DNA of 55,979 nt, taken from IMG/VR virus record IMGVR_UViG_3300032421_000002, positions 1 through 55,979 of that record, one strand, 5' to 3'. Below the pieces are notes generated by a model. That model saw only the letters and a list, made by a program, of their open reading frames with translations. It had not been told where the DNA came from and ran no database searches. Below, piece by piece: positions 3,901 through 19,411 of this stretch. A program made the translations under genes and the position numbers. Position 1 is the stretch's first letter. Each line of letters starts with the position of its first letter. Origin of the DNA: a virus. Lineage: Duplodnaviria > Caudoviricetes.

Positions 3901-5394
3901 ACCGGCGGCGCAGTCGGTGAAGGCAATCCCGACACCGGCCGTGCCGTTGGCGCAGCTGCGCCCGCTGGCGAACAGCCCGGGGCCAACCGCCCTGCAACGC
4001 CCGGAACCGAACGTGCGGGGGATCAGTCCGGCGGATCGAGCGAAAAACGTGGTGTAGACAAGCAAGGCGCCGAGTACGCGCTCTCGGTGAAGACCGAAGA
4101 GTTCGGCGCCGGCCGCGAGAAGACCAAGGCGATCATGGTCGAGGCGCGCGATCCGCAGACCGGCGAGCGCCGCGGCTTCATCGACTTCGCGATCCGGCCC
4201 GATGGTGTGCTCACCGCGGAGAATGCGAAGGTGGCGCCCAACTTCCAGAAGCGCGGCGTTGCCGAAATGATGTACAAGGCCGCGCGCGACGCAGGCCACG
4301 ACATCGCGCCCGGTCGTGTGCAGACGGATGCCGGGCAGGCGATGGTCGAAGCGCTCCAGAAGAAAGGGCTCATCAACAAGGAAGCCGAAGGCCCGCGCGC
4401 CAAGGCGAGCGAGCTCGCTGCCGAACGCGCTGCCGAACCGCTTGGCCGTGAGGCACCGGAAGACTACGCCGCGCGGCGTTCCTTGGAGACCAAGAAACCT
4501 TACATCGTGACCGGCATGGGGCACGCGATGCTCGACGAACCACTCAACCGGAAGAACGCGCAGGAACTCGGTGGAGTGGCTGCGCGCTTCGTGAAGGGCG
4601 AGAAGGTTGAAGGCTTCGAGAAGGGCGCGCAGAAGAAAGTCGCCCCGCCAATCGCGCACAAAGACCCGGGCGAGCCGACCGAAGCCGTGACGCCCAGCGT
4701 TGTCACGCAGTCGCTGAGCAAGAGCACGAAGCCGGCCGAAATGCGCGACACGCTGCTCAAGCAAGTCGACGACGCGATTGCGAAAGCACCGGAGCGCGCT
4801 GCCGATATCGGTACGACCGAGCCGCGAACGGTGCGCGGCAAGCGTGAGTTCTCAGGGTCACGCGGGAATCTTCGTGTCGAAGTTCGAGAGGGCAGTGACG
4901 GTCTCTGGCACGTACAGGACATGGGCCGCCCGGTCATCGAACGCGCGCGCGGGGCCGAGATCATCCAGGCTTCCACGCCTCGCATCGCGCGCCAAGTCGT
5001 CGAGTCCATGCTCTCGCGGGCCTCGCGCAACGACAAAGGCCACATCGTCTATGGCGAAGGCGGCTTCGTGAAGTTCAAGGTCGAGGGCGACGGTGAGTTC
5101 AAGGTGCTCAACGATCCCGATCGGCTCGCCGAGTTTCGCGCCAAGGTCGAGAAGTCCCCGGGCTTCAGCAACTCGGGGCAGCGCACGCAACGCGCACCCG
5201 AGCTGGAAGGCGCGCAGCGCGGCAGCGGCGGTCCTGCCAATGCCATCGCGAACATGGTCGACGAAGGCGACTTCCAGGCCGCTTACGATTACGCCACGTT
5301 CAAGGGCATCGACCCGGCGACCGTGAAACTCGACCCGAAGGCCAAGGCGCGGTTCTCGTCCTGGCTCAAGGAAAACGCTGAACCGCTCGACTGA
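979..5394 (+). CDS. Large internal virion/ejection protein of polyvalent type, with Pro-Glu repeats and a GNAT-like domain
   Basis: 1471 aa; last gene of the ejection block; N-terminus 'MPSYDDVMTALRNADASGNVEDAKRLA'; seven [ILV]P[VA]G[EK]xT-like repeats; acetyl-CoA motif A 'VAPNFQKRGVAEMMY'. Confidence 0.7.
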   Translation: MPSYDDVMTALRNADASGNVEDAKRLAQIASRLRSQQTEAPAPSAPKPAVGAPGTVRDITGAPTNISREATLAMIPGSAPPAPPAPEPSFLEKARGAVEAGLSLASGLVNSLPGAVSGFVGGAAGAAEAALRGGPQPGAVNAPGIPAGAQIRGGQSNAGGMMSALNEAMGQGAQAVTYQPSTETGQQYAEKTGEALGPLMATLGAHAGTLAPTTLAAPRVLEATGTAAKRAGAAAVEAAVPPISPQRAANVNAGMEQGLTFAPHQLAENKFVKLAGEAAETTPGAFGGMRQAERQQAFNQALIKHVNPEETATRLTGDVLGAAMDRSGGKIGDITAKTDLPFEDVQGGFAAQRRALARTTEDAQRVVGGYIDEFERLAAENGGNIPGTAFKDLNSDLGREIRANAGNPLGNKLSDLQDVVLDAFRDRLSPEDRATYDTSRMEYAKAKTILPLVAKSVEGDISPGALMNAVTASKAGKEAMGRGRGGDLGDLARAGKYLVEQKSSGTAERSLVYKFILDPLKETAKAATMYPAAAAYNLAGPAIARAMVRKGLKKGGAELPPEEPPPGAGGAAEPPPGGAGPAGGPSTPIDPRLAEVEKLRAQSTDPAVQAALDEHAKTVQKVIAAETAAKKQAASVEALEAAAKATQDPALRKTLQARADKLRAEKIPVGEVTEGQPEIPVEKPGKIPVGKATEGQPEIPVSKPEKVPAGEATEITPEVAPEVTAPPEPLPVGEATELKPTVPVGEATEIAPEVVEPEAPIPVGEATEVTPIPAGEAIYVHQSLFDAAKKRGIETRGRRPSEVRVAVENAVVKEHKLSPQDTERAKAVAKALDIDEKAVENAAVQHERSPRMFDREIDRIIEQGTAQPESAPAAAAPTYQKGNSWVLREKATGKVVMETYDPKKVAALNTEKYEAVPIGEYLAGANRKIKEGAPDAPETKQAVSSGEGPAAGAARAEARPGAGRGGDADIGAQRTGGAVGEGNPDTGRAVGAAAPAGEQPGANRPATPGTERAGDQSGGSSEKRGVDKQGAEYALSVKTEEFGAGREKTKAIMVEARDPQTGERRGFIDFAIRPDGVLTAENAKVAPNFQKRGVAEMMYKAARDAGHDIAPGRVQTDAGQAMVEALQKKGLINKEAEGPRAKASELAAERAAEPLGREAPEDYAARRSLETKKPYIVTGMGHAMLDEPLNRKNAQELGGVAARFVKGEKVEGFEKGAQKKVAPPIAHKDPGEPTEAVTPSVVTQSLSKSTKPAEMRDTLLKQVDDAIAKAPERAADIGTTEPRTVRGKREFSGSRGNLRVEVREGSDGLWHVQDMGRPVIERARGAEIIQASTPRIARQVVESMLSRASRNDKGHIVYGEGGFVKFKVEGDGEFKVLNDPDRLAEFRAKVEKSPGFSNSGQRTQRAPELEGAQRGSGGPANAIANMVDEGDFQAAYDYATFKGIDPATVKLDPKAKARFSSWLKENAEPLD

Positions 5395-6358: not shown

Positions 6359-6719
6359 GTACCTGAACGCCGCGGCATGCTCCCTGCTGTTGGTGTATTG
6401 CCTGCCGGTGGCGACGGTCATGGAGACTCCGCACCGTTGGGCTTTGTGGCCCGTGTTCGTGGCGGTAGTCGTTGCCCTGACCGTGCAGATCATCGATCCA
6501 TTCGCGACCTGGGTGCCCGAGATCGGTTGGCCGGCTGAGGTGCTGAACATCGCCATGGCGCTCATGCTCACGATGTGGCGCAAAGAGGCAATGCTCTTCA
6601 TCCGCTGTCGGCTAGGACCGGAGACCGAGCCGCCGCGGCACCCCATGCGCCGGCTGTCCGATCTGCGTGAGCTCACCCACGCTCAAGCCGCGCAGGTGCG
6701 CGGGAGAGGTCTCGAATGA
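6351..6719 (+). CDS. Membrane protein (holin or antiholin candidate)
   Basis: Three hydrophobic segments, Arg-rich C-terminus; ATGA overlap with the endolysin. Confidence 0.6.
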   Translation: MLEYLNAAACSLLLVYCLPVATVMETPHRWALWPVFVAVVVALTVQIIDPFATWVPEIGWPAEVLNIAMALMLTMWRKEAMLFIRCRLGPETEPPRHPMRRLSDLRELTHAQAAQVRGRGLE

Positions 6720-7243
6720 ACGCCGAACAGCTCGCCGCGGCTTGCGGGTGCTCGATCACGCTGGCGCAGGTGTGGCTCGATCCGATCAACGAGGCGATGC
6801 AAGCCTACGACATCGACACGCCACTGCGGCAAGCCGCGTTCCTTGCCCAGATCGGGCACGAGAGCGGCGGCTTGCGCTGGGTGCGCGAGATCTGGGGCCC
6901 GACGCTCGCGCAGGCGGGCTACGAGGGGCGCGAAGACCTGGGCAACACCGAGCCCGGCGACGGCCGGCGGTACATGGGCCGCGGGCTCATCCAGGTGACC
7001 GGGCGTGCCAACTACGCACGCATGAGCGGTGCTCTCGGCTTCGACTTCGTGGCGTCGCCCGAAGCGCTGGAACAACCGCACTGGGCGGCGTTGAGCGCCG
7101 GCTGGTATTGGCACGCACGTGGACTCAACGCGCTCGCGGACGCGGGCGACTTTGAGCGGATCACGCGCCGCATCAACGGTGGCCTGAACGGGCAAGTGGA
7201 CCGCGTGGCGCGGTTCGAGAAAGCACAGCAGGCGCTCGCATGA
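6716..7243 (+). CDS. Endolysin, glycoside hydrolase family 19
   Basis: 'AAFLAQIGHESGGL..VRE', 'YMGRGLIQVTGRANY', 'ITRRINGGLNG'. Confidence 0.93.
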   Translation: MNAEQLAAACGCSITLAQVWLDPINEAMQAYDIDTPLRQAAFLAQIGHESGGLRWVREIWGPTLAQAGYEGREDLGNTEPGDGRRYMGRGLIQVTGRANYARMSGALGFDFVASPEALEQPHWAALSAGWYWHARGLNALADAGDFERITRRINGGLNGQVDRVARFEKAQQALA

Positions 7244-7737
7244 TCGGCGCGCTCGGCCTGCGGCTCCTTATCATCACGGCCGCGCTCGGCGCGCTCGCGG
7301 CGCTGATCGGGGGCATTCACCATCACGGCGTCAACGAGGGCCGCGCCGAGGTCCAGGGGAAGTGGGACAAGCAGACCGCCGAGCTCGACGCGCAAGCGCT
7401 GGAGCAGTCACAGGAAAACCGACGCATCGAGCAACGCAGCGCAGTACGCGCAGGAGAGATCGCCCATGACACCGCAGTTCAGTTGGACCATGCTCGTACT
7501 GTTGCTGTGCGGGCTCGCGCTGATGGCGACAGCTTGCGCCAACAACTCGCCGCTGTGCAAGCCAGTGCCGCCGCCACAGCTTCCGACACCGCCCGAGCTG
7601 CTGATGCGATCGCCACCCTCAGCCGACAACTCGGCGAGTGCAGCGGCCAGCTTCAAGAGGTGGCAGATCGAGCTGACGCGGCTTCAGTCCAAGTGACCGG
7701 CCTTCAGGAGTTCGTGAAGGCCGAGCGCGAGCCCTAG
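7240..7737 (+). CDS. Rz-like inner-membrane spanin
   Basis: N-terminal TM plus Ala/Gln coiled coil, late Cys; follows the endolysin. Confidence 0.85.
   Translation: MIGALGLRLLIITAALGALAALIGGIHHHGVNEGRAEVQGKWDKQTAELDAQALEQSQENRRIEQRSAVRAGEIAHDTAVQLDHARTVAVRARADGDSLRQQLAAVQASAAATASDTARAADAIATLSRQLGECSGQLQEVADRADAASVQVTGLQEFVKAEREP
7466..7696 (+). CDS. Rz1-like outer-membrane lipoprotein spanin, embedded in Rz (+1 frame)
   Basis: AGGAG SD; hydrophobic stretch ending in lipobox-like 'LMATAC'; Pro-rich mature part (PVPPPQLPTPP). Confidence 0.85.
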   Translation: MTPQFSWTMLVLLLCGLALMATACANNSPLCKPVPPPQLPTPPELLMRSPPSADNSASAAASFKRWQIELTRLQSK

Positions 7738-7913
7738 GGCCGGTGCTTGGCGAAGGTCTGCGCGAGCCGCGCCTGCTTGCCCACTTTGCCGGGCATCTTT
7801 GCCGCAGCTGCGACCTTCGCCGCCGGGATCTTCTGACCCTTGGGCACGCCAAGCGACTCGTGCAAGCCGCCCTTGTGCATCTTGCTCGCGATCTTGGTGA
7901 GGGTCTTCTTCAT
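7734..7913 (-). CDS. Small Lys-rich phage protein (59 aa), not in the ORF track
   Basis: GGAG SD; MKKTLTKIASKMHKGGLHESLGVPKGQKIPAAKVAAAAKMPGKVGKQARLAQTFAKHRP; stop overlaps the Rz stop (convergent CTAG). Confidence 0.75.
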   Translation of the reverse strand: MKKTLTKIASKMHKGGLHESLGVPKGQKIPAAKVAAAAKMPGKVGKQARLAQTFAKHRP

Positions 7914-7925
7914 GGCTTCACTCCG

Positions 7926-8417
7926 TCACTTGTACAGACCTTTGCGGTGCACGAATCGATTGATCGCCGCGGCGATCCTGCCGGCGGGGTAGCACACATT
8001 CTCTTCATCGAGCGCCAGAGCGTCAACCCAGTGGTCGCCCCGCCGGCGCTTTGCGTAGGCGAAACCCGCGTGCCCGGCTTCGTGGCAAATGATCTCCATG
8101 CTCAGAAACCCATGCACGAGACCGATGAGGCAGAAGTAGCGGGGGTCAACTTGCATGGTGCTACGGCCGTGCGCGTCCACGATCTCGCGCGATAGCCCGT
8201 TCACGGCCCCTAAGCATCCTCGTCCGAGGTCGTGGTGGGCGCCGAGAGCCTGCCACCAAAAGCGACGCAGCGCGGTGCGGTTCTTGAATATCAACAGCTT
8301 TGCGTGCAGTCCGCGTTTACCGCGCACGCCGATGTCGCATTCAGCGAGAATATCGCCGCCGAGCGGGTGGTTGATGAAGTCGCGGGGAAGCGGGTTCTTG
8401 CCGCGCCGGACTCTCAC
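7926..8417 (-). CDS. Putative zincin metallopeptidase
   Basis: GTG start coupled to the upstream stop; 'IICHEAGH' followed by downstream 'EE..CY'. Confidence 0.6.
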   Translation of the reverse strand: MRVRRGKNPLPRDFINHPLGGDILAECDIGVRGKRGLHAKLLIFKNRTALRRFWWQALGAHHDLGRGCLGAVNGLSREIVDAHGRSTMQVDPRYFCLIGLVHGFLSMEIICHEAGHAGFAYAKRRRGDHWVDALALDEENVCYPAGRIAAAINRFVHRKGLYK

Positions 8418-9115
8418 CGTGCGGCCTCGTGCCAAATGTTGTCGTGCTCCGCGCCCTTCCATCCGTCGTTGAAAGGCCCGCCGAGCGTGAAATGCGCGAT
8501 ACCTACGCGAGCCGGCCGCGGTTGCACGTTGATGAGCCAATTCCAAGCCGGATTGAGCGCGCCGATCTCGTCATCCGCGAGCCAACCGAACTGATGCAGC
8601 CACAGGCCCGGCCGCGTGTTCACATCGTGCAGCGTGAGCCTGCGGTTCGCTGGGTGGTCCGTGTTCCACAGGATCACCGAGCTCCAGTTCTTGCGCGCGT
8701 ACGCGGTCTGAGGCTGACCGTCCATCTTGGTCGACTCCGTGGGCACGTGCTCGTGCTTCACGACATAGACGGCCTTGCCCGGCTCGATCTCGCGCAGCAT
8801 CTCCACGGGGCTGCGCAGGAACACGACATCACAATCTGTGAAGAGCGCGAAGCCGCTTTGGCACAGGATCGGCGTGAGGAACCGGCTGAACGCAAAGTCG
8901 GTCGACGCCTTCGCGTTGCTGATCAGGTCGTGATGCGCGTAAGCGCCGTCCTCGCTGCGTCGGTCCGCGAGCCGGGTCAGGAGCCCGGTCTCGCGCAAAC
9001 GGTCAAGGCAGAGAAACTCGGCGTGCAGTGCGCTACGTGCATTGAGGGTCCGTGCGGCGACGCGCGCAGCGCGGGCCTCGCGCTTGTCCCACCCGATGAA
9101 GCAGCGAAGCGTCAC
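8414..9115 (-). CDS. Glycosyltransferase, GT-A fold (GT8/CDI-like)
   Basis: 'FIGWD.RE', 'ASTDFAFSRF', DxD motif 'FTDCD', 'RKNWSS', 'HFTLGGP'. Confidence 0.85.
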   Translation of the reverse strand: MTLRCFIGWDKREARAARVAARTLNARSALHAEFLCLDRLRETGLLTRLADRRSEDGAYAHHDLISNAKASTDFAFSRFLTPILCQSGFALFTDCDVVFLRSPVEMLREIEPGKAVYVVKHEHVPTESTKMDGQPQTAYARKNWSSVILWNTDHPANRRLTLHDVNTRPGLWLHQFGWLADDEIGALNPAWNWLINVQPRPARVGIAHFTLGGPFNDGWKGAEHDNIWHEAAR

Positions 9116-9630
9116 GCTTTCCTCGCTTCCATGCGGAAGTCGCGATGCTTCTTCCCGATGGCGTGCCACTGCGTTTCGGCTTCGCGGATCTCGGTGAACC
9201 CGGCCTTCTTGAGCAGCGGCCGAAGGGTCTTCGGAGTCCACCCCCAGCGGTGGCACATGAACGGGTCTTGGTAGCTCGGATCACCGTAGAGGCCGAACAT
9301 CGCGAGACTGTCAAGACTCTTCACGTCCTCGGTCTCGATGAAGCGTACGAGGTTCTTGGCGCACTTCTTCACGTCCGGCATTTCGAGCACGAGCAGGCCG
9401 CCGGGCTTGAGCAGACGGTGCCACTCGGCGAGCGCCTGCGGGGCTTCCCACTTGTAGAAGTGCTCGAAAATGTGTATGCCCATCACCTCGTCGGCACAGC
9501 CGTCCGGCAAAGGGATCTCGGTTGCTTTGGCGAAGATTTCGGGATCGCGGGATGCCTTCGGGGAGCGCACGACATCGACATTTGTCCACCCGTCGAGGAC
9601 GTGACGACCACAACCAACGTTCACACGCAT
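9112..9630 (-). CDS. Class I SAM-dependent methyltransferase (Methyltransf_11-like)
   Basis: 'VNVGCG', 'WTNVD', 'HIFEH', 'LKPGG.L.LE.PD'. Confidence 0.88.
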   Translation of the reverse strand: MRVNVGCGRHVLDGWTNVDVVRSPKASRDPEIFAKATEIPLPDGCADEVMGIHIFEHFYKWEAPQALAEWHRLLKPGGLLVLEMPDVKKCAKNLVRFIETEDVKSLDSLAMFGLYGDPSYQDPFMCHRWGWTPKTLRPLLKKAGFTEIREAETQWHAIGKKHRDFRMEARKA

Positions 9631-10436
9631 TTCAGCACCATCCCCCAAGCCTGGGCCGCTTCATCGGGCCGCCAGTTGAAAAACATGCACCGCCACAGCA
9701 GTTCAAGCCGATTTTCCGCGGTATAGGGCTTGCCGTCCAGCCACGTTGCCGCGCCGTCGCTCGCCTCGAACGGGATGCCTGCCACGCAAGCGTCCAACGC
9801 CACGTTCGAGTGCCGGCACACGACGAGCGATGCGCCCTTGAGCACTTGCTCGATCGGGGAGTGCGCGTCGATCAGCGAGCACGGGATGGTGGGATAAGAG
9901 CGGTTCGGCTTGGGCCGAAAGATGATGCGGTGCCGCGGGAACCGACGCTTGAGCTTGCCCAGCATCACGAGCTCCCAATGCGGGTTGTCGATGATGGCTC
10001 GCGTCTTCGGGCCCATGCCGACGAGGATGATCGGTCCGTTCGGGTCGTAGTCGTTGCGCAGCGGCAAGTGCAGCGCATCCCATCGCGAGCTGTCGCGCGG
10101 CGCCCGGTCGAGCAACTTCTGGGGGTGCCAGTCATTGACCGAGAAACGCAGGCCGCCGACGAAGTCCTTCGTTGCGAAGTAGCCCATGTCCCACACCACG
10201 GTCGTCTTGCCGGCGGCGCGGTGCTCTTCAAGCATGCGCATCCGCTCAGGGTCACCGGGCCCGTAGGTCATCAGCACTCGCGCGCGGCCGGAAGGCTTGT
10301 CGACGACGGCGTGCGGCACCGGCGCAGCGCTGGCGAGAGCTTGGAGCATGCGCGCGCCCTTGGCGTGCATGTTGGACTGGAGCAGGATCTCGATCACTTT
10401 CGGCCCCTGCGGTGTCGGTTTACCTCGGACTTCCAT
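9621..10436 (-). CDS. GT-B glycosyltransferase-like (KpsC/KpsS-like)
   Basis: 'WDMGYF', 'IIFRPKP', 'VCRHSNVALDACVAGIP'; apparent paralogue of 12278-13045. Confidence 0.65.
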   Translation of the reverse strand: MEVRGKPTPQGPKVIEILLQSNMHAKGARMLQALASAAPVPHAVVDKPSGRARVLMTYGPGDPERMRMLEEHRAAGKTTVVWDMGYFATKDFVGGLRFSVNDWHPQKLLDRAPRDSSRWDALHLPLRNDYDPNGPIILVGMGPKTRAIIDNPHWELVMLGKLKRRFPRHRIIFRPKPNRSYPTIPCSLIDAHSPIEQVLKGASLVVCRHSNVALDACVAGIPFEASDGAATWLDGKPYTAENRLELLWRCMFFNWRPDEAAQAWGMVLKCV

Positions 10437-10594
10437 TGGGCGCCGCGGCGAACGGGATGCGGCTTAGACAGTAGTGTCGGCTTACTCTCACCGGAGGGCA
10501 GCTTGGACTGCTCGATCACGCGATAGTCACTGTTGCGCAGCGCATCGATCACATCGCGGTTGTCTGGGTGAACGATGATGACGAACGGCTTCAC
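10394..10594 (-). CDS. Small hypothetical protein
   Basis: GTG overlaps the upstream stop; basic C-terminus. Confidence 0.5.
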   Translation of the reverse strand: MKPFVIIVHPDNRDVIDALRNSDYRVIEQSKLPSGESKPTLLSKPHPVRRGAQWKSEVNRHRRGRK

Positions 10595-11439
10595 AACCAC
10601 AACCCCTCCAACCAGATGCGATAGATAGCGGCCACGGCCTCAAGCGACGGCGCCGCGGTGCGCAGCTCTGCCGACACGTGGTGTCGCACCGAGGCGTCGG
10701 CCAGCGTGTCGAATGCATCGCGGAGCTCGGCCTTCGTGTCGGCCCACGTTGCGGCCGAATTGTCGGTCTCCAGATACCCGGCCTCGCGGTTGCAGACGAT
10801 CGGTGTACCGGAGCCCTGTGCGTTCGCCAACTTGACGTTGGACTTCCAATGCTTCGCGGCGTAGCCGCCCGCCTCGCGCAGTGCCACCACGATGTCGAGA
10901 TCCGCGAGCGCCGCCGGCTTGGTGGCGAACCGCCAGCCGCGGCGCGCGCACTCGGATTCGAGGATGGCTTGCCACATGCCCAGGTACTGCACGCCGCCCT
11001 CATAGCCCACGGTCTCGACGACACGGCGCACGGGGTTGATCTGCTGGGCCGGGCGCGCGTGGTGCGCCAACGCGAGCACCGGCCGCTTGAAGCCTACTTC
11101 GGCGATGTCTTCAGCCATCGCGCGCGTTGCGGCGACGAGCGCGTAAGGCTTCAGCAGCTCGATCTGGCTCTTGAGCCAGCGCAGGCACGCACCGCGGTCC
11201 CACAGGTTGCCGTGAGGTTGAGGCCACGCATCGACGATGTCCCAGATGATCGGGATGTGTTGCGCGCGCATTGCCTCGATCGTGCGAGGGTCGAGCCGCT
11301 TGACGATGATCCCGAGATCCATCGGCCTCGCGGGGCGCGCGTGCGGCACGATGGTGGCCTCGATCGCTGCGCCGAGCTGCTCGCCACGGATGCGCCAGCT
11401 GCCTGACTTGCCGTTGCCGGTGATGAGGATGCGCTTCAC
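10591..11439 (-). CDS. GT-B glycosyltransferase-like (GT4/Glycos_transf_1-type C-terminus)
   Basis: 'SWRIRG.Q', 'IIWDIVD', 'VGYEG', 'DLDIVVA', 'WKSNVKL...GTP'. Confidence 0.65.
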   Translation of the reverse strand: MKRILITGNGKSGSWRIRGEQLGAAIEATIVPHARPARPMDLGIIVKRLDPRTIEAMRAQHIPIIWDIVDAWPQPHGNLWDRGACLRWLKSQIELLKPYALVAATRAMAEDIAEVGFKRPVLALAHHARPAQQINPVRRVVETVGYEGGVQYLGMWQAILESECARRGWRFATKPAALADLDIVVALREAGGYAAKHWKSNVKLANAQGSGTPIVCNREAGYLETDNSAATWADTKAELRDAFDTLADASVRHHVSAELRTAAPSLEAVAAIYRIWLEGLWL

Positions 11440-11966
11440 TTCTTGGTTCCGAAGCCCAGCACTTCGCTGCGCGCGAGGAACACTTGCCCGTCGATCGCAG
11501 CCTTCTCAGACTTGCGGTCGCCCTTCGACAGCGAGCGCTCAGTCGCGTACATCAGCGCTTGCCACTCGATGTCCGGGAAGAGCTCGCGCACGGCCTCGAT
11601 CGTGAAGCGCCAATAGTCGCTGGGGTAGGCGTGCACCTTCCACACGAACGGTACACTGAGATCCAGCGTCGCGCCGGGCGCCATCAGCCGCTCGATGTTC
11701 GCGGCCAAGAGCCACGGCCGGCGGGAGTGCTCCAGCACGCTGCGGCATTCGACGTGGGCGAATCGCATGTTCTCGTGGACCGTCAGCGGGGTTTCAAGAT
11801 CATGCATCCAGTCAACTCCAGGGCCGTCGAGCATGTCGATGCCAACCACGTCCGAGTAGAGCTTGCGGCGATCGGTGCGCGTGGCGTAGATGCGCGAGCC
11901 GACGATGAGTGTGCGGCCGGGCTTCGGCCGGCGAAACTTGCGCTCGAATTGCTCGTGAGGGGTCAT
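11436..11966 (-). CDS. Class I SAM-dependent methyltransferase
   Basis: 'LIVGS', 'GIDMLDGPGVD', 'SVLEH', 'VPF...H.YP.DYWRFT'. Confidence 0.82.
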   Translation of the reverse strand: MTPHEQFERKFRRPKPGRTLIVGSRIYATRTDRRKLYSDVVGIDMLDGPGVDWMHDLETPLTVHENMRFAHVECRSVLEHSRRPWLLAANIERLMAPGATLDLSVPFVWKVHAYPSDYWRFTIEAVRELFPDIEWQALMYATERSLSKGDRKSEKAAIDGQVFLARSEVLGFGTKK

Positions 11967-12281
11967 GGTTTAGCAATCTTGAGAGAAGCAAAGGCCATCG
12001 CGCGCATGTCGGCGAGGTGTCGTTCAGTAGCGGCCAATGAACCTGCGCTCCCGCTCCCTTCGGAGGGGCGCAGGCCGCAGGACCACAGCCTCATCCATCA
12101 GTTCTTGCGCGGTTTTATACGCAAGACGCATTGCCGGTTCTGCGTGCTCGCCGCGCACTTCTCGCGTTTTGAACACCAGCGGTAGCGCCATTGCGCCAGC
12201 GATGCCAGGGGCAGGATCGAACAGCCAAACATCAATGCTGTCGCCGTGTATGTTGCGCTGTGCGCGGGCTTCGATTGTCAT
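11963..12281 (-). pseudogene. Hypothetical phage gene interrupted by a 1-nt insertion near 12089-12090 (true frameshift or sequencing error)
   Basis: Span is 319 nt (3n+1) between ATGA-coupled ends; removing one base gives ...AQELMDELWSCGLRPSEGSGSAGSLAATERHLADMRAMAFASLKIAKP*. Confidence 0.7.
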
Positions 12282-13045
12282 GCCAGTAACCTCCTGAATG
12301 CTTCGCCGCTCTCGACTTCGGACATGCTCCACTGAGCCCAGGCCAAGCGCCGGAACATCGCGAGCCGCGCAGCATCGTCGCAGAGCGGCCCCATCTTGAA
12401 CCGCGTCAACGGGCGCCCAGCACTGGCGCCAATCCACGACTGCATGCCGTAGAACACGGGCACGCCCATCATCAGAGCCTTGATCGCGGCGCCCGAGCTC
12501 CACGTCGCAACGCTCGATGCGCGCGCCAAGTCCTCTTCCAGCGTCGGGCCGTCTTTGTTCGTGCCCGGGTGCCGGCGGATGCGTCCCTTGGTCGTGCTCA
12601 CGGCGAGGTTGAGCCAGCCATCTGGTGCACGCAGGCCGGGCTCGCCGATGCCGCGCTGCGCAAGGATGACGCACTCACCGCCGGGCTCGCGCCACGGGGC
12701 GAGATCCACGCCCCGCGAGTCCCAGCGTTCGGGGCCACCATCGGGCCAGCGGCCGGCGCCGTTGTGGTGGCCTTGCGCGATGGCGAACGATTGCTCGCCG
12801 CGCCACTCTTTGCCCAGGTAGCCGTTCTCCACGACGAGCACCTTCGCCTTCGCGGCCTCGAACTCGCGAGCACGACTGTGGCCCTCGCCCATGCGGTTCC
12901 AGATCACGAGCACGTCGCCCGGCCGCGGGTTGTCGGTCACGCGGAACGACGGTGCATAGCCGAGCGCCTTCAGCCCCGCGGCAAAGGCTTCGCGGCGATA
13001 GGTCAGCGCTTCGCGGAAGAGGATGAAGGCTCGGGGGGTCATCAT
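12278..13045 (-). CDS. GT-B glycosyltransferase-like (KpsC/KpsS, Capsule_synth-like)
   Basis: 'VVENGY', 'RIRRHP', 'ATWSSGAAIKALMMGVPVF'. Confidence 0.7.
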   Translation of the reverse strand: MMTPRAFILFREALTYRREAFAAGLKALGYAPSFRVTDNPRPGDVLVIWNRMGEGHSRAREFEAAKAKVLVVENGYLGKEWRGEQSFAIAQGHHNGAGRWPDGGPERWDSRGVDLAPWREPGGECVILAQRGIGEPGLRAPDGWLNLAVSTTKGRIRRHPGTNKDGPTLEEDLARASSVATWSSGAAIKALMMGVPVFYGMQSWIGASAGRPLTRFKMGPLCDDAARLAMFRRLAWAQWSMSEVESGEAFRRLLA

Positions 13046-13296
13046 CGTCCGATCAATCCGTCACGCTCGGCTAAGTCCGATCCAGGGCACGGGATGCCCT
13101 TCTCGTAGTAGTCGCGCCAAAGACCTGTGTAGTACCCGATCCGGCCGCATTGCGTGCAGCGGAAGCGGCCGATACCCGCGGCTATGTCAGTGCTCTCGCC
13201 GCCGACTTCGATGAGCTGCTGTTCAGTTTCACCAAGCAGACCAATTTCCACGTCCTGCCACACGGAATAGACGGGCTTGCGGTGCGTGCAAGTCAC
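13042..13296 (-). CDS. Small Cys-containing (Zn-ribbon-like) protein
   Basis: GTG coupled start; 'CTH...RCTQCG...CP'. Confidence 0.55.
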   Translation of the reverse strand: MTCTHRKPVYSVWQDVEIGLLGETEQQLIEVGGESTDIAAGIGRFRCTQCGRIGYYTGLWRDYYEKGIPCPGSDLAERDGLIGR

Positions 13297-13901
13297 ATCA
13301 GCTCCTTCCCGACCGTCGACATCGGGAACCACTCCAACGCCGATCCCGGCGTGCAGTTGATCACTTCGCACTTGTGCTCTGCGAGGTCTTCCGCGAGTTT
13401 CTTGCCCTTGTGCCGCCATTCCTCGAACAGTTGCGCTTGCACCAGCGGCTTCTCGTGATCGCCGTGCCGATGCTTCTCGCCGTTCGGGCCGAGCTTCATG
13501 TCCATGCCCAGCAGCAAGATGCGCCGACAGCCCCACAGGAACGCGAGATTGATTGCCTGCATCCCGCTGTTGCCGTTCATGTGAACCACGTTCAGGCCCA
13601 GCCCTTCGCGGTTGCCGCCGCGCTGGCGGTTGAGCTGGAATCGCTCGGCCGCGCTGCCGTCCTGGGTCCAGCGTTCGGACTTCGGGCACTGCGCTCTGAT
13701 GCGCGCGTGGTGCACCTTCCAAAACATGAAGTCTCCCGCGTACACCACGTCCGCCCACGGCGCATATGCGTACGCGGTGTTGACCGCGATCGTCTTGATC
13801 GGCTTGTGACATGACACCACTGCGTCGAGTTGCGCGTCGCTCAAGCTCGGGCCGGCGCAGATGACGATCGCGGTGTGCGCGGACCAGTCAGGCGTCTTCA
13901 C
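13293..13901 (-). CDS. Maf/DUF115-like (CstII-type fold) glycosyltransferase
   Basis: 'ICAGPSL', 'IAVN', 'YAGD..FW', 'NSGMQAINLA...G.RRILLLGMD'. Confidence 0.75.
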   Translation of the reverse strand: MKTPDWSAHTAIVICAGPSLSDAQLDAVVSCHKPIKTIAVNTAYAYAPWADVVYAGDFMFWKVHHARIRAQCPKSERWTQDGSAAERFQLNRQRGGNREGLGLNVVHMNGNSGMQAINLAFLWGCRRILLLGMDMKLGPNGEKHRHGDHEKPLVQAQLFEEWRHKGKKLAEDLAEHKCEVINCTPGSALEWFPMSTVGKELM

Positions 13902-14116
13902 GCCAAGTTCTCCATCTCGCCATCCCACTCGTACACCATGGCGTCGGGGCCGTCGCCCATGCGCACGTTCAGCGTTCCCTCGCTCACGCCGGTCGGCCAG
14001 ATCGAACCGAGAGCCGGAATCCCGTGCTGACGCAAGCATTTCAGGACGAAGACACCGCGGTGCACGTCCTGCCCGAGATCCGCGAGCCGCGTCCTGCTGA
14101 TGGTGACCGTGATCAT
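13898..14116 (-). CDS. Hypothetical protein
   Basis: 72 aa; start and stop coupled to both neighbours. Confidence 0.6.
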   Translation of the reverse strand: MITVTISRTRLADLGQDVHRGVFVLKCLRQHGIPALGSIWPTGVSEGTLNVRMGDGPDAMVYEWDGEMENLA

Positions 14117-14601
14117 GTCGGAATCGTAACGTTTGCTTCACGCTCGCGCAACTCAAGTTCGAGCGCGGCGAGCAGGTTCCAAATCATCTGCGCACGATGA
14201 AGGCATCCGGTCTGCGCATCCACACGTTCGCCCGCGCCGAAAGAAAGTGCATGCCTTCCAAACGCGTCCATGTACCGAGTTTCGCCATCAGGCACAGTGG
14301 CCCAGCCGTTCGGTGTGTACTTGATCGCGCCCGCGGTCGTGACCTTGGCTACCTCGTCGATCGCGCGCGCGAACCCGGCAAGGCACAACCACACGCGCGT
14401 TTTCCCTGCGTCGAGTTTCGCGCCGGGCGTGTGCGCATCCGTTCCGTTGGGGTCGGCTTCGGCGAGCAATACCTGCGCCGAACGGCAGTAGCGTTCAGGT
14501 ACTCCGGTGTCTCCCCATCCCACTAGCAAGGTCTGAACCTCGACTTCGCCCTCAACAGGACACGGCTCGCCTTCCGGCCACCGAACCCAAAAATCGCTCA
14601 T
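14113..14601 (-). CDS. dATP/dGTP diphosphohydrolase domain protein (DUF5664-like)
   Basis: 'GAKLDAGK', 'VTT.GA.KY..NGW', 'RYMDA..RH', 'D..TG..H.A...WN'. Confidence 0.85.
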   Translation of the reverse strand: MSDFWVRWPEGEPCPVEGEVEVQTLLVGWGDTGVPERYCRSAQVLLAEADPNGTDAHTPGAKLDAGKTRVWLCLAGFARAIDEVAKVTTAGAIKYTPNGWATVPDGETRYMDAFGRHALSFGAGERVDAQTGCLHRAQMIWNLLAALELELREREANVTIPT

Positions 14602-16145
14602 GCCAACACCTCTTCCGGTTTGTGCGCAAGCGAGTCCATGGTCTCGTCTTGCAGCTGTCGTTTCTCGATGAGCCGCGCGGCCACGATCTCGTCGATCGTG
14701 CCGCGAGCGAGGATCTGATAGACCATCACCTCGCGGTCGAAGCCCGCTTGCACCTGCCGCATGGGACCGATGCGCTCGATGATCTGGTCGTGAGTTTCAA
14801 GGTCGTAGTTCAGCGCAAAGAACACGATGATGTGGCACACGTTCTGGAAGCCGTCGACCCCATGGCCGATGCTCTGGGGGTGGACAAAGGCGACCGGCAC
14901 GCGGCCCGCCTTGAAGTCGTCCTCGTCCAGCTTCGTGTCGATGTGCCGGCCCTGCGGAAAGCGCTTCAGCAGGCGCGCGAGGTCGGGCTTGAAGTGATAG
15001 GCCACCAGTATCGGCTCGCCCTGCGCCTCTTCGATGATCGATTCGAGGGCTTGCAGTTTCTCGTCGTGCGCTTCGACCCAGTGCGAAATGTCGCTCTCGA
15101 TCTCGGCGTCGGTGCCCGTGTAGACCGCGCCGTTCGCCAGTTGCAGGCACTTGATCAGCTTGGCCGACGCGGCGAAGGCTTCGATGTCGTGGCCCTCCAG
15201 CCGCGTGAACAGATCGCGTTCCATTTCGCGGTATCGCTTGCGCGCATCCGGCGGGAGGTCGACGTACACCGGCTGCACGATCGGCGCCTTGATGTTGAAC
15301 CAGTCCTTCGGGTTGAACGCGAGCGCTACGTCCTTGATGCGGCCGATGATCTCGTCGAAGGAGTGAGGGAACAGGATGCGCTTGATGCGAGTCTTGTGTG
15401 CAGTCAAGGCGTCCTTGGCGCGCTGGAAGCCGAACCAGCGACTTTCAAAGTCGTCGTAGCTGCGGCCGAGCCGCGCGCCGCGGTCGATGAACCACATCGG
15501 CCCCCACAGGTCCGAGAGCCCGTTCGGCGCAAACGTGCCCGTGAGATTGATCCAGAAGCGCGTGTGATCGTGCGCGATTCTGGCGAGCGCCTGCGCGCGC
15601 TTGCCACCTTGGCGCAACCGAAAGGACTTCACGCGTGTGGCCTCGTCGGCCACGACCAGCTGGAAAGGCCACGCTTCGCCGAGAATCTCGACGAGCTGGG
15701 GGACGATGTCGTAGTTGACGCACAACACGTCGAGCTGCGCGATCACAGCGAGCCGTGAGCGCCGCGCGGCCGGGCGAAACTCTTCAACGCGTGCCCAGAG
15801 CGCCTTGGTCTCTTCGCTCTTGGGATCACGCAGGTCGGCGGCATCGGCCTTGCGCAGCACGCGCAGAAACTCGCGCTCGGCCGCAGTCCACTCGATGAAC
15901 TTGACGCGCAGGCCCGCGAACTGGGTCCACTTGTGCGTTTCCTCGGGCCACGTGGAGCGAGCCACGCGCAGCGGCGCGAGCACGATCGTCTTGCGCACCG
16001 TGCCCGCGAACATGCGGGCCTCGATGATGGACAAGACCGCGGGGGTTTTGCCCATCCCCATGCGCGCGAGCAATGCGCATCGATCATGCGCAAGCCCGAA
16101 GTCAACCATCGGCGGTTGCCACGGGCGGGGGGTGAAGTCACGCAT
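14598..16145 (-). CDS. SNF2-family helicase
   Basis: Start MRDFTPRPWQ; Walker A 'MGMGKT', 'ADEA', 'LTGT', motif VI 'QIIERIG..RQ'. Confidence 0.9.
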   Translation of the reverse strand: MRDFTPRPWQPPMVDFGLAHDRCALLARMGMGKTPAVLSIIEARMFAGTVRKTIVLAPLRVARSTWPEETHKWTQFAGLRVKFIEWTAAEREFLRVLRKADAADLRDPKSEETKALWARVEEFRPAARRSRLAVIAQLDVLCVNYDIVPQLVEILGEAWPFQLVVADEATRVKSFRLRQGGKRAQALARIAHDHTRFWINLTGTFAPNGLSDLWGPMWFIDRGARLGRSYDDFESRWFGFQRAKDALTAHKTRIKRILFPHSFDEIIGRIKDVALAFNPKDWFNIKAPIVQPVYVDLPPDARKRYREMERDLFTRLEGHDIEAFAASAKLIKCLQLANGAVYTGTDAEIESDISHWVEAHDEKLQALESIIEEAQGEPILVAYHFKPDLARLLKRFPQGRHIDTKLDEDDFKAGRVPVAFVHPQSIGHGVDGFQNVCHIIVFFALNYDLETHDQIIERIGPMRQVQAGFDREVMVYQILARGTIDEIVAARLIEKRQLQDETMDSLAHKPEEVLA

Positions 16146-16465
16146 CACAGTGGCGGCAACCAATCGTCGAGCTGCGCGATCGTCGAGATCACGAGGACCG
16201 TGCACCCAGCATCGCGCATGCGCTCGTGTTCGCGTGCCTGCGCGGCCGTAGGCTTGCCATCCGGTGCCTTGGTTTCGGCGAAGGGGTGCGGAGAAGGATT
16301 GTTCGTGGGGCTGGCGAAAACCCAGTGGTAGTAAGCCACTGACGGGAACAAGCACAGCACGTCCGGCGCGTGCCGCCGGCCCAGCCAGCTCACGGCCCGG
16401 ATCTCGCCCCCATAGGCTTCGACGCGTTCCTTCAGGGCTTTTCGGATCTTGCCTTCTGCGGCCAT
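16145..16465 (-). CDS. VRR-NUC nuclease
   Basis: 'E..I', 'APD', 'FAETKAP..KPT..Q'. Confidence 0.85.
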   Translation of the reverse strand: MAAEGKIRKALKERVEAYGGEIRAVSWLGRRHAPDVLCLFPSVAYYHWVFASPTNNPSPHPFAETKAPDGKPTAAQAREHERMRDAGCTVLVISTIAQLDDWLPPL

Positions 16466-16803
16466 CTCGGGTTCCTCTGCTGACTCAGTTTCGAGTTTTC
16501 GGCCAGCGTGACGACTTGCCAGTGATCGGGGTTGATGCACAGAGTCTCGGTGCACAGATGGTCGAGGGTCTCGCCTTCGCTGAGCAGCATCTTTTCCAGC
16601 ATGCGCCGACACTCGTTCTCCATCTCGCGATGCGCGGCGACGGTCACGAGCTTGCCATCAACGCGCTTGTTCACGCGGCCGTAAGGCCAGCGCTTGCCGC
16701 ACGTGCGGCCGGTCCACACCCAGCACCCGTTCTCGTTCTGGTCTTCGGGCTTCTCGCTGTTCGCGACGAGTCTCTGAAACATCGTGTGGTACTTCGTCGC
16801 CAT
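16432..16803 (-). CDS. HNH homing endonuclease
   Basis: 'CWVWTG', 'YGR', 'AHR', 'DHLC....CINPDH....T..EN'. Confidence 0.88.
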   Translation of the reverse strand: MATKYHTMFQRLVANSEKPEDQNENGCWVWTGRTCGKRWPYGRVNKRVDGKLVTVAAHREMENECRRMLEKMLLSEGETLDHLCTETLCINPDHWQVVTLAENSKLSQQRNPRWPQKARSEKP

Positions 16804-17008
16804 CGTGACGAGGCTCCTTGATCAGTCCTGACTGCAACGCGATCACGACAGCATGCACCAGCGAGCGCGCGCCCAAGCGCTGCTTGGCGATGGCGAGCTG
16901 ATCGGTGACACCGTGCGCGAGGATGCCGAGATCGTGCGCGATCTCTTTGACGTGGTGGCCGCGGGCAAGCCGGGTCAGGTAGTCCAACTGGCGCGGCGTG
17001 AGGTTCAC
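16658..17008 (-). CDS. LuxR-type HTH regulator
   Basis: 'LTPRQLDYL..LA.G...KEIA..LGI'; C-terminal tail overlaps the HNH gene. Confidence 0.8.
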   Translation of the reverse strand: MNLTPRQLDYLTRLARGHHVKEIAHDLGILAHGVTDQLAIAKQRLGARSLVHAVVIALQSGLIKEPRHDGDEVPHDVSETRREQREARRPERERVLGVDRPHVRQALALRPREQAR

Positions 17009-17226
17009 TCGACCGCTCCGAACGCATCGATGCTGATCGGGCCGGTCTCACACCTGTGCGGACGCTTGCTGCGCCCGTCGAAGAGCGCGTATCGCTCGCC
17101 GCGGCCGTCGGCTTGTGTGACGCTCTGCCAGTACAGCCCCGCGGCACCGCAGCGCTTGCACACGATGTCGTCCTGATCGCCGAGCTCGGCCGCGTCGTCC
17201 ATGTCGAATGCGTCGGGTACTCGCAT
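17005..17226 (-). CDS. Small Zn-finger-like protein
   Basis: 'CKRCG...LYW...HRC'. Confidence 0.6.
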   Translation of the reverse strand: MRVPDAFDMDDAAELGDQDDIVCKRCGAAGLYWQSVTQADGRGERYALFDGRSKRPHRCETGPISIDAFGAVE

Positions 17227-17230
17227 GCCC

Positions 17231-19411
17231 TCACCCCTTCTCGTAGCGCTTTGTCGTGAACCCTGCCGCGGCAAGCGGCAAGCCCTGATTCCATCCTAGA
17301 TCACTGCAAAGGAGTGTAGCAAGTGCTTCGTGCGAATACTCGTCGGTGTCAGGCGTTTCCGTGACGAGTTCGTCATGCACGCCAAAGATCGTTTCGTACC
17401 CGGCCGCCTCCGCGAGCGGCATGCACCCTGCCAGCTGATCGCGAGCCACGGCTTGCGTGACGTTCTCGAACAGCTTGCCTCCGTAGGTCTTCGTCGGGCC
17501 CCATTGCTTCGTGTAGGGGTTGAGTCCGATGAAGCTGATCTTGTCGCTCTTGTCGATCGTCGGTGAAAAGTAGCACAGAGCGCGGCCGCTCGGTAGCCCG
17601 ATACGAAGCCATGAGCCATCGCGTCGCACCTTGAGCTTGCGCGCCTGCATCGTGATGCCGGGTGACGCAATCGCGGCGCGCACGGTGTTCTCCAGTTCCT
17701 TCCAGTAGGACGAAATAGCGGGGTGCGCTTTGCGCCACAAGCGTTTGATCGCGTCGCAGGCGATGAAGGTCTTTTCGGAGAGCCCGTAGCGCGCCTTGAG
17801 CTTCGCGGCCTCTGGGTCTTTCGCCCCCGGGGGGATCACGTCGTACAGCCATTGCAGAAAGTCGGCGGCCTCTTCTTTCTCGGTCTCCGGTAGCACATCC
17901 CACACGGCTTCGGTCATGGCCGCGAGATCGATACCGTAGGTCGCGGCCCCGGTGATCCACGCGCCAACGCCGCCTTGGTACTGGAACATCAGTTCCTCGA
18001 CCTTGCCGATCTGGCGCTGTTCCTTGTTCACGTCATCAGGGCTGACGTTGAACGACTTCCCGTAGGAGAGCTTGTAGAGGTCGGGGCCTTCGCCTGCGTC
18101 GAAGTCACGGAACGCTTGCAGCTTCCAGTCCTCGCCGGCGAGCCAAGCCGCGACCCGGCCCTCGATGTTCGCCAAGTCGGCGATCGGCAGTTTCTTGCCC
18201 GGCGGCGCGATGATGGCGCCGCGCACAGCTGCGCCGGCGAGTGCGCGCACGTTGCCGTGCGTCAAGTCTTCCGCGCCCGCGAGCATCGCCTCGATGCCCA
18301 CGGTGATGTACTCGTGGATATGGTGATCCTTTACCGCGACCTTCGCGATGCCGTGCCACTGCGCGATGACATCGATCGGTGGGCGCATGAGGTTGCCCGG
18401 CTGGAACATGCGGTGGGCCCAACGGCCGGTGCGGCTCGCGCCGCAAAATTGCTGGAGACCGCGCAGCCGGCCGTCGCGACTCACGCCGTTGAGCAACGCC
18501 GTGTACTTCGATGCGCTGTTCATGGACGCCTGGAGCCGGATCGCGAGCAGGTCGCGCACGCTCTGGGGCAGATCCGGGTCGTTCATGCGCCGCTCAAGCG
18601 TGTCGGCCTTCATGTCGGGCAGCGTCACGCCGTGTGCGTCGAGCACGTAGGCCAGCAGCGCGTCGCGCTGCGTGGTGCTCGCGACTGCGCCCTCGGTGAT
18701 CTCGGTCGTTCGGTCCGCGAGCTTGTCGAGCGATGACTTGGCCGCGCGCACCGCGGCGCGGGCGAGATCCTGATCGACGAAGGCGCCGCGGGCATTGATC
18801 TTGAGATCGAGGTGCCACAGTGCGAGCTCGGCGCCCTTGTAGTTCCACATCGGCACGCGGCGGTGCACCTCGCGCATTGCCTCGATGTCCTGGCCGGCGT
18901 AAGCGACAAACTCGGCCCACTCCGCGGGGTGCGTCTTCACGGTCGCGCGCCGCGTGCCGTATTTCTTGAAGAACGCATCATTCTGCGGCTTGCAAAATAG
19001 GTGGATCAGGTTGCGGCCGCCGGCTGATTTGCGCTTGCCTTGGTCGAGGCGCAGCACTTCGCCGAGTGTGCCCAGCGCGCCGGGCAAGCCGTGGCAGTAG
19101 GCTTGCACCATCGTGTCGCGGCGTCGATGCATCGGGATGCGCGCGGCCACGTCGGGCATCGCGTGCTCCAACACCACAAGGTCGAAGGCGCCGCCGTTGT
19201 GGAACCAGATCAAGCACTCGGGGTCATCGATCGATTCGTCGAGCGCCGTGGGCATGCGCTTGCCGCTCGTGATGTCCCACACGTCGGTCGCGCCGTCGTC
19301 GATCGCGTAGGCCCAGATCATCACCTCGGCCTCTTCGGCGTATCGGTGCGTGCCGTGGGTGATCGGGACCGGAGAGAAGGTCTCCAGATCGGAGAAGTTG
19401 TCACGCACCAC
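17231..19411 (-). CDS. DNA polymerase, family A (APSE/BPP-1-like)
   Basis: Exonuclease 'DLET', 'HN..FD'; 'TGRW'; motif A 'DLANIEGR'; motif B 'RQIGKVEEL...Y'; motif C 'VHDE'. Confidence 0.95.
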   Translation of the reverse strand: MVRDNFSDLETFSPVPITHGTHRYAEEAEVMIWAYAIDDGATDVWDITSGKRMPTALDESIDDPECLIWFHNGGAFDLVVLEHAMPDVAARIPMHRRRDTMVQAYCHGLPGALGTLGEVLRLDQGKRKSAGGRNLIHLFCKPQNDAFFKKYGTRRATVKTHPAEWAEFVAYAGQDIEAMREVHRRVPMWNYKGAELALWHLDLKINARGAFVDQDLARAAVRAAKSSLDKLADRTTEITEGAVASTTQRDALLAYVLDAHGVTLPDMKADTLERRMNDPDLPQSVRDLLAIRLQASMNSASKYTALLNGVSRDGRLRGLQQFCGASRTGRWAHRMFQPGNLMRPPIDVIAQWHGIAKVAVKDHHIHEYITVGIEAMLAGAEDLTHGNVRALAGAAVRGAIIAPPGKKLPIADLANIEGRVAAWLAGEDWKLQAFRDFDAGEGPDLYKLSYGKSFNVSPDDVNKEQRQIGKVEELMFQYQGGVGAWITGAATYGIDLAAMTEAVWDVLPETEKEEAADFLQWLYDVIPPGAKDPEAAKLKARYGLSEKTFIACDAIKRLWRKAHPAISSYWKELENTVRAAIASPGITMQARKLKVRRDGSWLRIGLPSGRALCYFSPTIDKSDKISFIGLNPYTKQWGPTKTYGGKLFENVTQAVARDQLAGCMPLAEAAGYETIFGVHDELVTETPDTDEYSHEALATLLCSDLGWNQGLPLAAAGFTTKRYEKG

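Follow-up and report, generated by a model that had tools for sequence, protein, structure and literature searches.

A conserved glycosyltransferase and methyltransferase cassette of tailed phages as a candidate system for virion glycosylation

The window considered here is the whole of IMG/VR virus record IMGVR_UViG_3300032421_000002 (55,979 bp, with a completeness estimate of 99 %), for which PHROG and Pfam scans indicate a podovirus-like phage, with a GC content of 61–70 %. Behind its replication genes, and facing its lysis genes, lies a cassette of seven minus-strand genes (8414–13901), the calling of which was guided by the GC content of third codon positions (GC3). From the leading gene onwards these are Mf, Ka, M2, G4, Kb, M1 and A8, comprising five proteins with glycosyltransferase (GT) folds and two that are clearly (M1) or probably (M2) class I methyltransferases. 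A sequence-only reading of this DNA had already named the enzyme families, and each of those guesses, including the non-obvious assignment of two proteins to the KpsC type, is borne out by Pfam, PHROG, Protein Data Bank (PDB) profile and Foldseek searches. A megablast search with positions 8000–16400 against 50,697 phage records returned no match.

Enzymes encoded by the cassette

Ka (12278–13045, minus strand, 255 aa) belongs to a large unnamed phage family and is a KpsC/WbbB-fold glycosyltransferase. [quoted passage not shown] The best seven Foldseek matches in the PDB are all KpsC entries, followed by KrkA and WbbB (probability 1.0, query TM-score (TMq) 0.44–0.59), with 6mgd, 6mgc, 8fuw, 9yfy and 5fa0 included amongst them. 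At the level of sequence, Ka reaches the cut-off of no Pfam family, with PF05159 absent from both the protein scan (E ≤ 1) and a search of the window (E ≤ 10), whilst the family profile (A1) has 0 matches to PDB sequences at E ≤ 10, and none of the five GT-fold proteins has a match in NCBIfam. Since PDB sequence-profile searches were useless for Ka and for G4, the identities of both were resolved by fold searches only, and these confirm glycosyltransferase folds in each case (KpsC/KrkA/WbbB and GT4-type GT-B, respectively). Relatives of Ka are numerous: a word-indexed search found 1,354, of which the 120 listed are all unnamed and without a Pfam domain, and an exhaustive search yielded 2,814 clusters (50 % identity) at E ≤ 1e-3, 282 of them at E ≤ 1e-30.

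Motif positions in Ka and its paralogue Kb, set by sequence together with predicted secondary structure, both ally these proteins with the characterised enzymes KpsC (GT107), WbbB (GT99) and KrkA (GT140), and separate them. Retaining Kdo transferases are described as carrying a QxxxD motif, in which the Gln binds the Kdo carboxylate and the Asp is the covalent nucleophile, as well as using a Glu base; a (K/R)XHP motif, common to sialyl- and Kdo-transferases, binds cytidine monophosphate (CMP) (PMC10148158, PMC12887879). Ka keeps the latter as RxHP, with R in 86/87, H in 80/87 and P in 87/87 sequences (the seven with K instead of H being Kb-like copies), and likewise keeps the Gln of QxxxD in 79/87. 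The position of the nucleophile Asp (Q+4), in contrast, is occupied by Gly in 81/87 sequences. At Q+5 there is a Glu in 48/87, including the window's own protein, and a Ser in the Caulobacter phage proteins; being present in only 48 sequences, this Glu was ruled out as a substitute nucleophile across the family. Judged by these motifs, Ka looks like a CMP-ulosonic-acid-dependent enzyme that would be unable to use the known double-displacement route, and its chemistry, without the covalent-nucleophile Asp, is probably unlike that of the retaining Kdo transferases.

Kb (9621–10436, minus strand, 271 aa) is a divergent paralogue of Ka in which RxKP replaces RxHP and the Gln is missing. Alignment of the two family profiles (A1 and A3) reveals paralogy over the full length (hhalign 99.2 %, E-value 2.3e-19, 236 columns). 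The Atlas neighbours of Kb are 86–100 % viral, and in some clusters 17–18 % of members carry PF05159. An acidic residue in ENGY/DxGY is kept in both paralogues, and may be regarded as a candidate base in Ka and Kb. Thus, of the claim that the cassette encodes two KpsC/KpsS-like enzymes, the modified GT-B-like fold and the ancestry hold, but the mechanism does not, as Ka is without the nucleophile Asp and Kb without the His of the HP motif. Further differences from KpsC, WbbB and KrkA are that neither protein shows sequence-level membership of these families, and that both are single-module phage proteins (255–270 aa) found outside capsule and O-antigen loci.

Leading the cassette is Mf (13293–13901, minus strand, 202 aa), a minimal DUF115/GT42-like (Maf/sialyltransferase-type) glycosyltransferase with a GTG start codon that overlaps the stop of an upstream 72-aa gene. 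Its designation as Maf/DUF115-like stands on a match to phrog_4603 ('alpha-2,3-sialyltransferase', E-value 2.3e-36), a match to PF01973 that is under the curated cut-off (E-value 1.1e-5, 25.7 bits against 34.6), and weak similarity of the family profile (A4) to Cst-I and Cst-II in the PDB (E-value 0.05–0.14), with the alignment falling at the GPS and SG..A..G..L.G.D regions. In common with Maf proteins and the GT42 enzymes Cst-I and Cst-II, Mf has a DUF115/MptE-like core with GPS and SG...G.D motifs. It differs from them in that it is phage-encoded, below the Pfam cut-off, at the head of a multi-GT cassette, and of a size that corresponds to the catalytic core only, without the domains that flank this core in Maf proteins (median length across loci of 203 aa). 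Both Maf and GT42 enzymes depend on CMP-nonulosonates, and Maf attaches O-glycans, within the cytoplasm, to a structural protein that self-assembles. A search for longer (fused) relatives of Ka and of Mf had no success, although this is weak evidence; one natural Mf–Ka fusion, P0249, was found in an all-against-library search.

G4 (10591–11439, minus strand, 282 aa) adopts a GT-B fold, with GT4-type enzymes as its closest structural counterparts. Foldseek comparison of its AF2 model (pLDDT 95.4) with the PDB returned BshA, MshA, the BA1558 GT4 enzyme, SdgB and WbnH (E-value 7e-9 to 6e-7, TMq 0.58–0.72), together with SenB and GtfC (E-value within 1e-8 to 1e-7), whilst no Glycos_transf_1-type Pfam domain was found above cut-off (PF13524 only, E-value 0.014, 15.8 bits against 25), and the G4 profile has no meaningful match amongst PDB sequences. 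The cassette is closed by A8 (8414–9115, minus strand, 233 aa), a GT-A (GT8-like) glycosyltransferase with a DxD motif, whose residues D94 and D96 are invariant in 41/41 sequences. It matches phrog_28018 (E-value 2.7e-47) and is 37 % identical to gp129 of phage CcrColossus, annotated as a 'nucleotide-diphospho-sugar transferase'. Two Pfam families score below their cut-offs (PF03407, E-value 0.011, 16.2 bits against 22; PF01501, E-value 0.22, 11.5 bits against 24.3), and the PDB matches are the GT8 enzyme GlyE (5gvv) and WbbM (6u4b) at E-values of 0.17–0.34, with D94/D96 aligned to their DxD region. These GT8/GT-A signals are weak but concordant in what they suggest for A8.

With regard to the two smaller enzymes, M1 (9112–9630, minus strand, 172 aa) is clearly a class I S-adenosylmethionine (SAM) methyltransferase, matching PF08241 (E-value 6.2e-9, 36.8 bits against a cut-off of 21.2) and SAM methyltransferases in the PDB (E-value 7e-6). 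M2 (11436–11966, minus strand, 176 aa), an optional member of the cassette, is probably of the same class: it remains under Pfam cut-offs (PF13489, E-value 0.047), yet its profile (A6) matches UbiG in the PDB (E-value 1.2e-4), and it aligns with M1 in hhalign at 91.9 %.

The cassette enzymes had been proposed to lack transmembrane (TM) segments, and indeed no 19-residue window in any of them has a mean Kyte–Doolittle hydropathy above 1.52. A second proposal, that the genes form a translationally coupled operon, is upheld in part. Start and stop codons overlap at four of seven junctions (72-aa gene|Mf, M2|G4, Kb|M1 and M1|A8), but the other three are interrupted by gaps of 247 nt (Mf|Ka), 311 nt (Ka|M2) and 154 nt (G4|Kb). 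The overlaps extend beyond the cassette at both ends, in a chain that runs from the SNF2 helicase gene through a pyrophosphohydrolase gene and the 72-aa gene into Mf, and from A8 into a gene for a 169-aa protein. A scan of positions 7000–17500 for promoters and terminators detected one promoter-like and three terminator-like sites, not above the level of shuffled sequences.

Recurrence of the cassette beside virion structural genes

A scan of IMG/VR returned 186 viral loci, from which the best 80 by Ka similarity were taken for locus counts; these do not represent an unbiased sample, and many are cut by contig ends. Within them, tblastn detects A8 in 68 loci, Mf in 67, Kb in 56, G4 in 49, M1 in 48 and M2 in 15. 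The order Mf-Ka-(M2)-G4-Kb-M1-A8 is found in approximately 39/80 loci, with the remainder being mostly contig-end truncations or a second variant, arranged as Mf-Ka-Ka'-methyltransferase-(oxidoreductase/unknown)-FkbM methyltransferase-A8. The recurrence of this order from locus to locus goes far beyond what chance would produce, and the seven-gene set is a mobile, portable cassette.

When the open reading frames (ORFs) of the 80 loci were clustered and the recurrent neighbours annotated, virion structural genes (head, connector or tail) were found in 72 loci. They lie no more than three ORFs upstream of the cassette in 49/71 loci, and equally close downstream in 41/63. Recurrent neighbours include TerL, prohead protease, HK97-type major capsid protein (MCP), portal, head–tail adaptor, head closure, Neck1 and tail terminator genes, as well as those for major tail protein, tape measure, DUF2460 and Hc1. 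In several loci Mf follows straight after the MCP gene, and some loci are split, the head genes being followed by Mf and the major tail protein by the remaining cassette genes. Separately, one ORF cluster (cluster 9, present in L006, L013, L015, L020, L021 and others; e.g. L018:7755–8714) lies directly upstream of Mf in 29 loci; its members resemble the C-terminal extension of long portal proteins, and many copies end in collagen-like Gly-X-Y repeats.

Amongst cultured phages, Ka is limited to 15 records, all of which are Caulobacter jumbo phages. These possess Mf, Ka, Kb, A8, a methyltransferase and a further GT after the tail genes and before the lysis genes; the cassette core is present in CcrColossus, CcrBL9, CcrSC and CcrPW, and in CcrBL9 and CcrColossus the cassette stands directly behind the tail genes. 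Homologues of Mf are spread more widely than the cassette, being found in 68 records amongst cultured phages, including D3, PAJU2 and P1, where they fall under connector or morphogenesis genes. On the bacterial side, 185,579 species genomes yielded only 17 loci, as against the 186 viral loci. All 17 hold cassette genes, and seven of them show phage structural genes too. Atlas neighbours are 77–100 % viral.

It is this association with structural genes in relatives that mainly supports a virion target. The reading favoured by context, to which we would give a probability of roughly one half, is that the cassette glycosylates the virion with CMP-ulosonic and uridine diphosphate (UDP) sugars taken from the host. 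From the folds and motifs, we infer donors and an order of steps as follows. Mf would place an ulosonic acid on a phage virion protein, with host CMP-Kdo or a CMP-nonulosonate as the donor, after which Ka may add a second ulosonic-type sugar by means of its carboxylate-binding Gln and CMP-binding RxHP. G4 (GT4-type) and A8 (GT8-type, with its DxD) would then lengthen the chain with hexoses from host UDP-sugars, and M1 and M2 would O-methylate the sugars; Kb, as a divergent paralogue, is assigned no donor in this scheme. A Gram-negative host is indicated by the window's spanin gene (7240–7737), and Gram-negative hosts make CMP-Kdo. Amongst the approximately 41 gene calls scanned in the window (some 12 ORFs shorter than 215 aa lie outside the scan), neither an integrase nor any gene for base modification, nucleotide-sugar synthesis or a flippase is present, in agreement with the sequence-only reading, which had remarked on the lack of sugar-nucleotide synthesis and flippase genes and of a base hydroxylase or hydroxymethylase. 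The cytoplasmic pathway decorating the virion that was proposed there is the reading best supported by context (72/80 loci and the Caulobacter phages), albeit circumstantially, and with the qualification that the window's own cassette comes after replication genes.

Several observations weigh against a virion target. Within the window, the cassette is chained by start/stop overlaps to the SNF2 helicase and deoxynucleoside triphosphate (dNTP) pyrophosphohydrolase genes, and not to structural genes. Elsewhere, the cassette, at 45–60 % identity, serves phages with unrelated structural proteins, the window's MCP having no homologue in any of the 80 loci, which implies either a loose acceptor rule or an acceptor from outside the structural proteins. 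For Ka, Mf and A8, the nearest structural homologues have mostly lipid-linked glycans as their substrates (capsule linker, O-antigen and lipooligosaccharide (LOS)). Morons classically occupy positions next to lysis genes or in between the head and tail genes, and the 80 loci, having been picked from the 186 by Ka similarity, form a biased sample.

The structural and positional points amongst these are what would be expected of host envelope remodelling, whereby the enzymes, working on the cytoplasmic side of the inner membrane, would add and cap sugars on a lipid-linked glycan (lipid A-core, undecaprenyl pyrophosphate (Und-PP)-linked O-antigen or capsule linker) that host transporters then export. 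The purpose could be superinfection exclusion, lysogenic conversion, or sparing progeny from adsorbing to debris. The nearest solved structures, namely KpsC, WbbB and KrkA (capsule linker and O-antigen terminator), the Cst-I/II LOS sialyltransferases and GT8/WbbM, are all compatible with such a role, and enzymes of this kind are peripheral, without TM segments, as in the cassette. In addition, Kdo or methyl capping is described as terminating O-antigen chains (PMC9587256), head–tail and lysis-adjacent slots are commonly occupied by morons, and several carriers lie in bacterial genome assemblies, such as that of Variovorax sp. JS1663. However, the carriers of lytic type include both the window, with its PolA and primase and no integrase amongst the scanned genes, and the Caulobacter jumbo phages; the cassette is packed into late operons without promoter or terminator signals of its own, and there is little time, late in a lytic cycle, for a surface change to arrive at the outer membrane. 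As the family is also nearly confined to viruses, by locus counts and by its Atlas neighbours alike, we consider envelope remodelling unlikely.

The breadth of unrelated virion proteins amongst carriers bears on another explanation, that the glycan is added to a non-virion protein in the infected cell, either of the host (flagellin, pilin or a defence sensor) or of the phage, as a means of preventing superinfection or of escaping a defence system that senses proteins. Were the acceptor a host protein common to the carriers, it would be understandable that one cassette can accompany unrelated virion proteins, and flagellin is the established target of Maf-type enzymes; moreover, Caulobacter phages of the group carrying the cassette adsorb via the flagellum and pili. 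Set against this, Mf is a 202-aa core without the Maf flanking domains, no longer forms having been found (in itself weak evidence), a methylated glycan made by seven enzymes is elaborate for the mere inactivation of a target, and the association with structural genes is left unexplained. A non-virion acceptor is accordingly judged distinctly improbable.

The window, its closest relative and the question of the acceptor

On the plus strand, the window encodes TerL, a portal protein, MCP (41932–42990), an SU10-type adaptor, an internal virion protein and a 1,471-aa tail protein (979–5394), with PHROG and Pfam scans additionally identifying an endolysin (6716–7243) and an Rz-like spanin (7240–7737). 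The minus strand holds genes for an exonuclease, a Gp2.5-like single-stranded DNA-binding protein, PolA, the SNF2 helicase and a PF18909 dATP/dGTP diphosphohydrolase-like (dNTP pyrophosphohydrolase-like) protein (14113–14601, Pfam E-value 2.8e-24), and then the cassette. The PF18909 gene is joined by overlaps to the helicase gene on one side and to the 72-aa gene leading into Mf on the other. A tRNA scan revealed no tRNAs, and the window shows no gene of the PurZ type or any other for base replacement. A small His-Me/HNH-type homing-endonuclease-like gene (16432–16803, minus strand; PF05551, E-value 7.7e-6, slightly below cut-off), relatives of which occur in three cassette loci too, is located between those for PolA and the helicase.

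This neighbourhood is the setting for a further alternative, DNA hypermodification, in which the GTs and methyltransferases would decorate a modified base in phage DNA as protection against restriction. The window's cassette is co-oriented and chained with the SNF2 helicase and PF18909 genes, and co-oriented with PolA, whilst DNA, as a substrate, is shared by all phages. DNA-glycosylating GTs of viruses have been described (Pyle et al. 2024, as cited in PMC12619734). Nevertheless, no hydroxymethylase, thymidylate-synthase-like or other base-modifying gene is present amongst the genes scanned, and the helicase, PolA and pyrophosphohydrolase genes, in common with the endolysin and tail genes of the window, flank the cassette in just 1/80 loci, that of a near-identical relative. 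In other phages the cassette sits in head–tail modules, apart from genes of nucleotide metabolism, and we know of no CMP-ulosonic-acid-type enzyme that acts on DNA. Raised as an alternative in the sequence-only reading, DNA hypermodification thus gains no support, with only the window-specific neighbourhood in its favour, and appears very improbable.

The closest complete relative of the window is G001 (loci L004/L101), a 54,260 bp genome with terminal repeats that has the cassette but lacks M2. Relative to G001, positions 7238–9117 of the window (1.9 kb, spanning the spanin gene, a 59-aa gene, the 169-aa HExxH gene and A8) are inverted. The break points coincide exactly with the start/stop overlaps of endolysin|spanin and M1|A8, and the borders show no inverted repeats that are convincing. 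As a result, A8 of G001 runs together with the tail and endolysin genes, and its spanin gene with M1. That both arrangements exist, in phages otherwise 83–96 % identical, suggests that the two convergent operon ends, cassette and lysis, may be expressed at a similar, late time. In a relative at 65 % identity, the second cassette variant is found at the same site behind the helicase, whilst more distant relatives have none there; the cassette is therefore accessory in the window's own lineage. The relative G004 has only replication genes in common with the window. A side observation in G003–G005 (L103–L105) is that the SNF2 helicase match falls in two parts approximately 830 nt apart (10001–10441 and 11273–12337 of the loci), which suggests an insertion (intein or intron) or a domain swap.

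Comparison with G001 is also informative as to the acceptor. Directly after the portal gene, the window encodes an 832-aa protein (38055–40553, plus strand) with six PKD domains scored by Pfam; the domains are Ser/Thr-rich, with Pro/Ala linkers between them, and are accompanied by a C-terminal domain of unknown family. It is absent from G001, which is otherwise collinear and where the portal and scaffold-like genes lie approximately 420 nt apart, indicating a recent insertion, and it is perhaps a head or neck decoration. The PKD protein had been put forward as a possible acceptor, a suggestion that is weakened, as G001 has the cassette and no PKD protein; it was thereby ruled out as a conserved acceptor.

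Two small genes adjoin the cassette enzymes. The first encodes the 169-aa protein (7926–8435, minus strand), which contains an HExxH (HEAGH) motif, and its start overlaps the stop of A8. It has a weak match to phrog_1365 and belongs to no Pfam family; it is common to the window and G001 only (1/80 loci), and is inverted there along with A8. The second is a possible gene for an 84-aa protein that contains four Cys residues (13042–13297, minus strand), located between Mf and Ka. Preceded by an AAGGAG Shine–Dalgarno sequence, its GTG start codon overlaps the stop of Mf, and its stop overlaps the Ka start. Its GC3 of 0.69 is below that of neighbouring genes, it has no Pfam match and no tblastn match in any of the 80 loci, and it is absent from G001, which has a different stretch of approximately 500 nt in its place.

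Relation to known systems and implications

A precedent for the virion glycosylation proposed for the cassette is found in mycobacteriophages, where Che8, Corndog and Myrna carry glycans on capsid and tail-tube subunits (Freeman et al. 2023, as cited in PMC11256854 and PMC12619734). Both systems consist of phage-encoded soluble glycosyltransferases, and would be alike in relying on host sugar nucleotides. They differ in that the hosts of the cassette are Gram-negative, as indicated by the spanin, in its use of DUF115 and KpsC-fold ulosonic-type enzymes, and in its composition of six to seven genes in fixed order. Methyltransferases are reportedly present in some of the glycosylating mycobacteriophages too. 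Literature searches, which did not include supplementary files, found no paper on the cassette, on DUF115 in phages or on PmgP of P1. The cassette is thus best described as a variant of phage glycosylation systems that is built from unnamed enzyme families.

To our knowledge, virion glycosylation has been shown in a few mycobacteriophages only. As a tentative extension, which we rate as possible rather than probable, the particles of many tailed phages of Gram-negative bacteria may be covered by an acidic O-glycan, capped with methyl groups, that starts with ulosonic acids from the CMP-Kdo or CMP-nonulosonate pools of the host and is made by a portable cassette whose KpsC-fold enzymes would constitute a new phage-specific glycosyltransferase family, without the covalent Asp nucleophile and with a mechanism unlike that of every characterised relative. 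The cassette defines unnamed enzyme families in any event, and a KpsC-fold branch without the catalytic Asp is of relevance to glycoenzymology and glycoengineering. As cultured Caulobacter jumbo phages carry the cassette core, the system is experimentally approachable. Should virion glycosylation hold true for phages of Gram-negative hosts, sugar-coated particles would be common, given that the Ka family alone comprises 2,814 clusters at 50 % identity, and this would matter for the stability of phages, for the way in which immune and bacterial defences recognise them, and for phage therapy.

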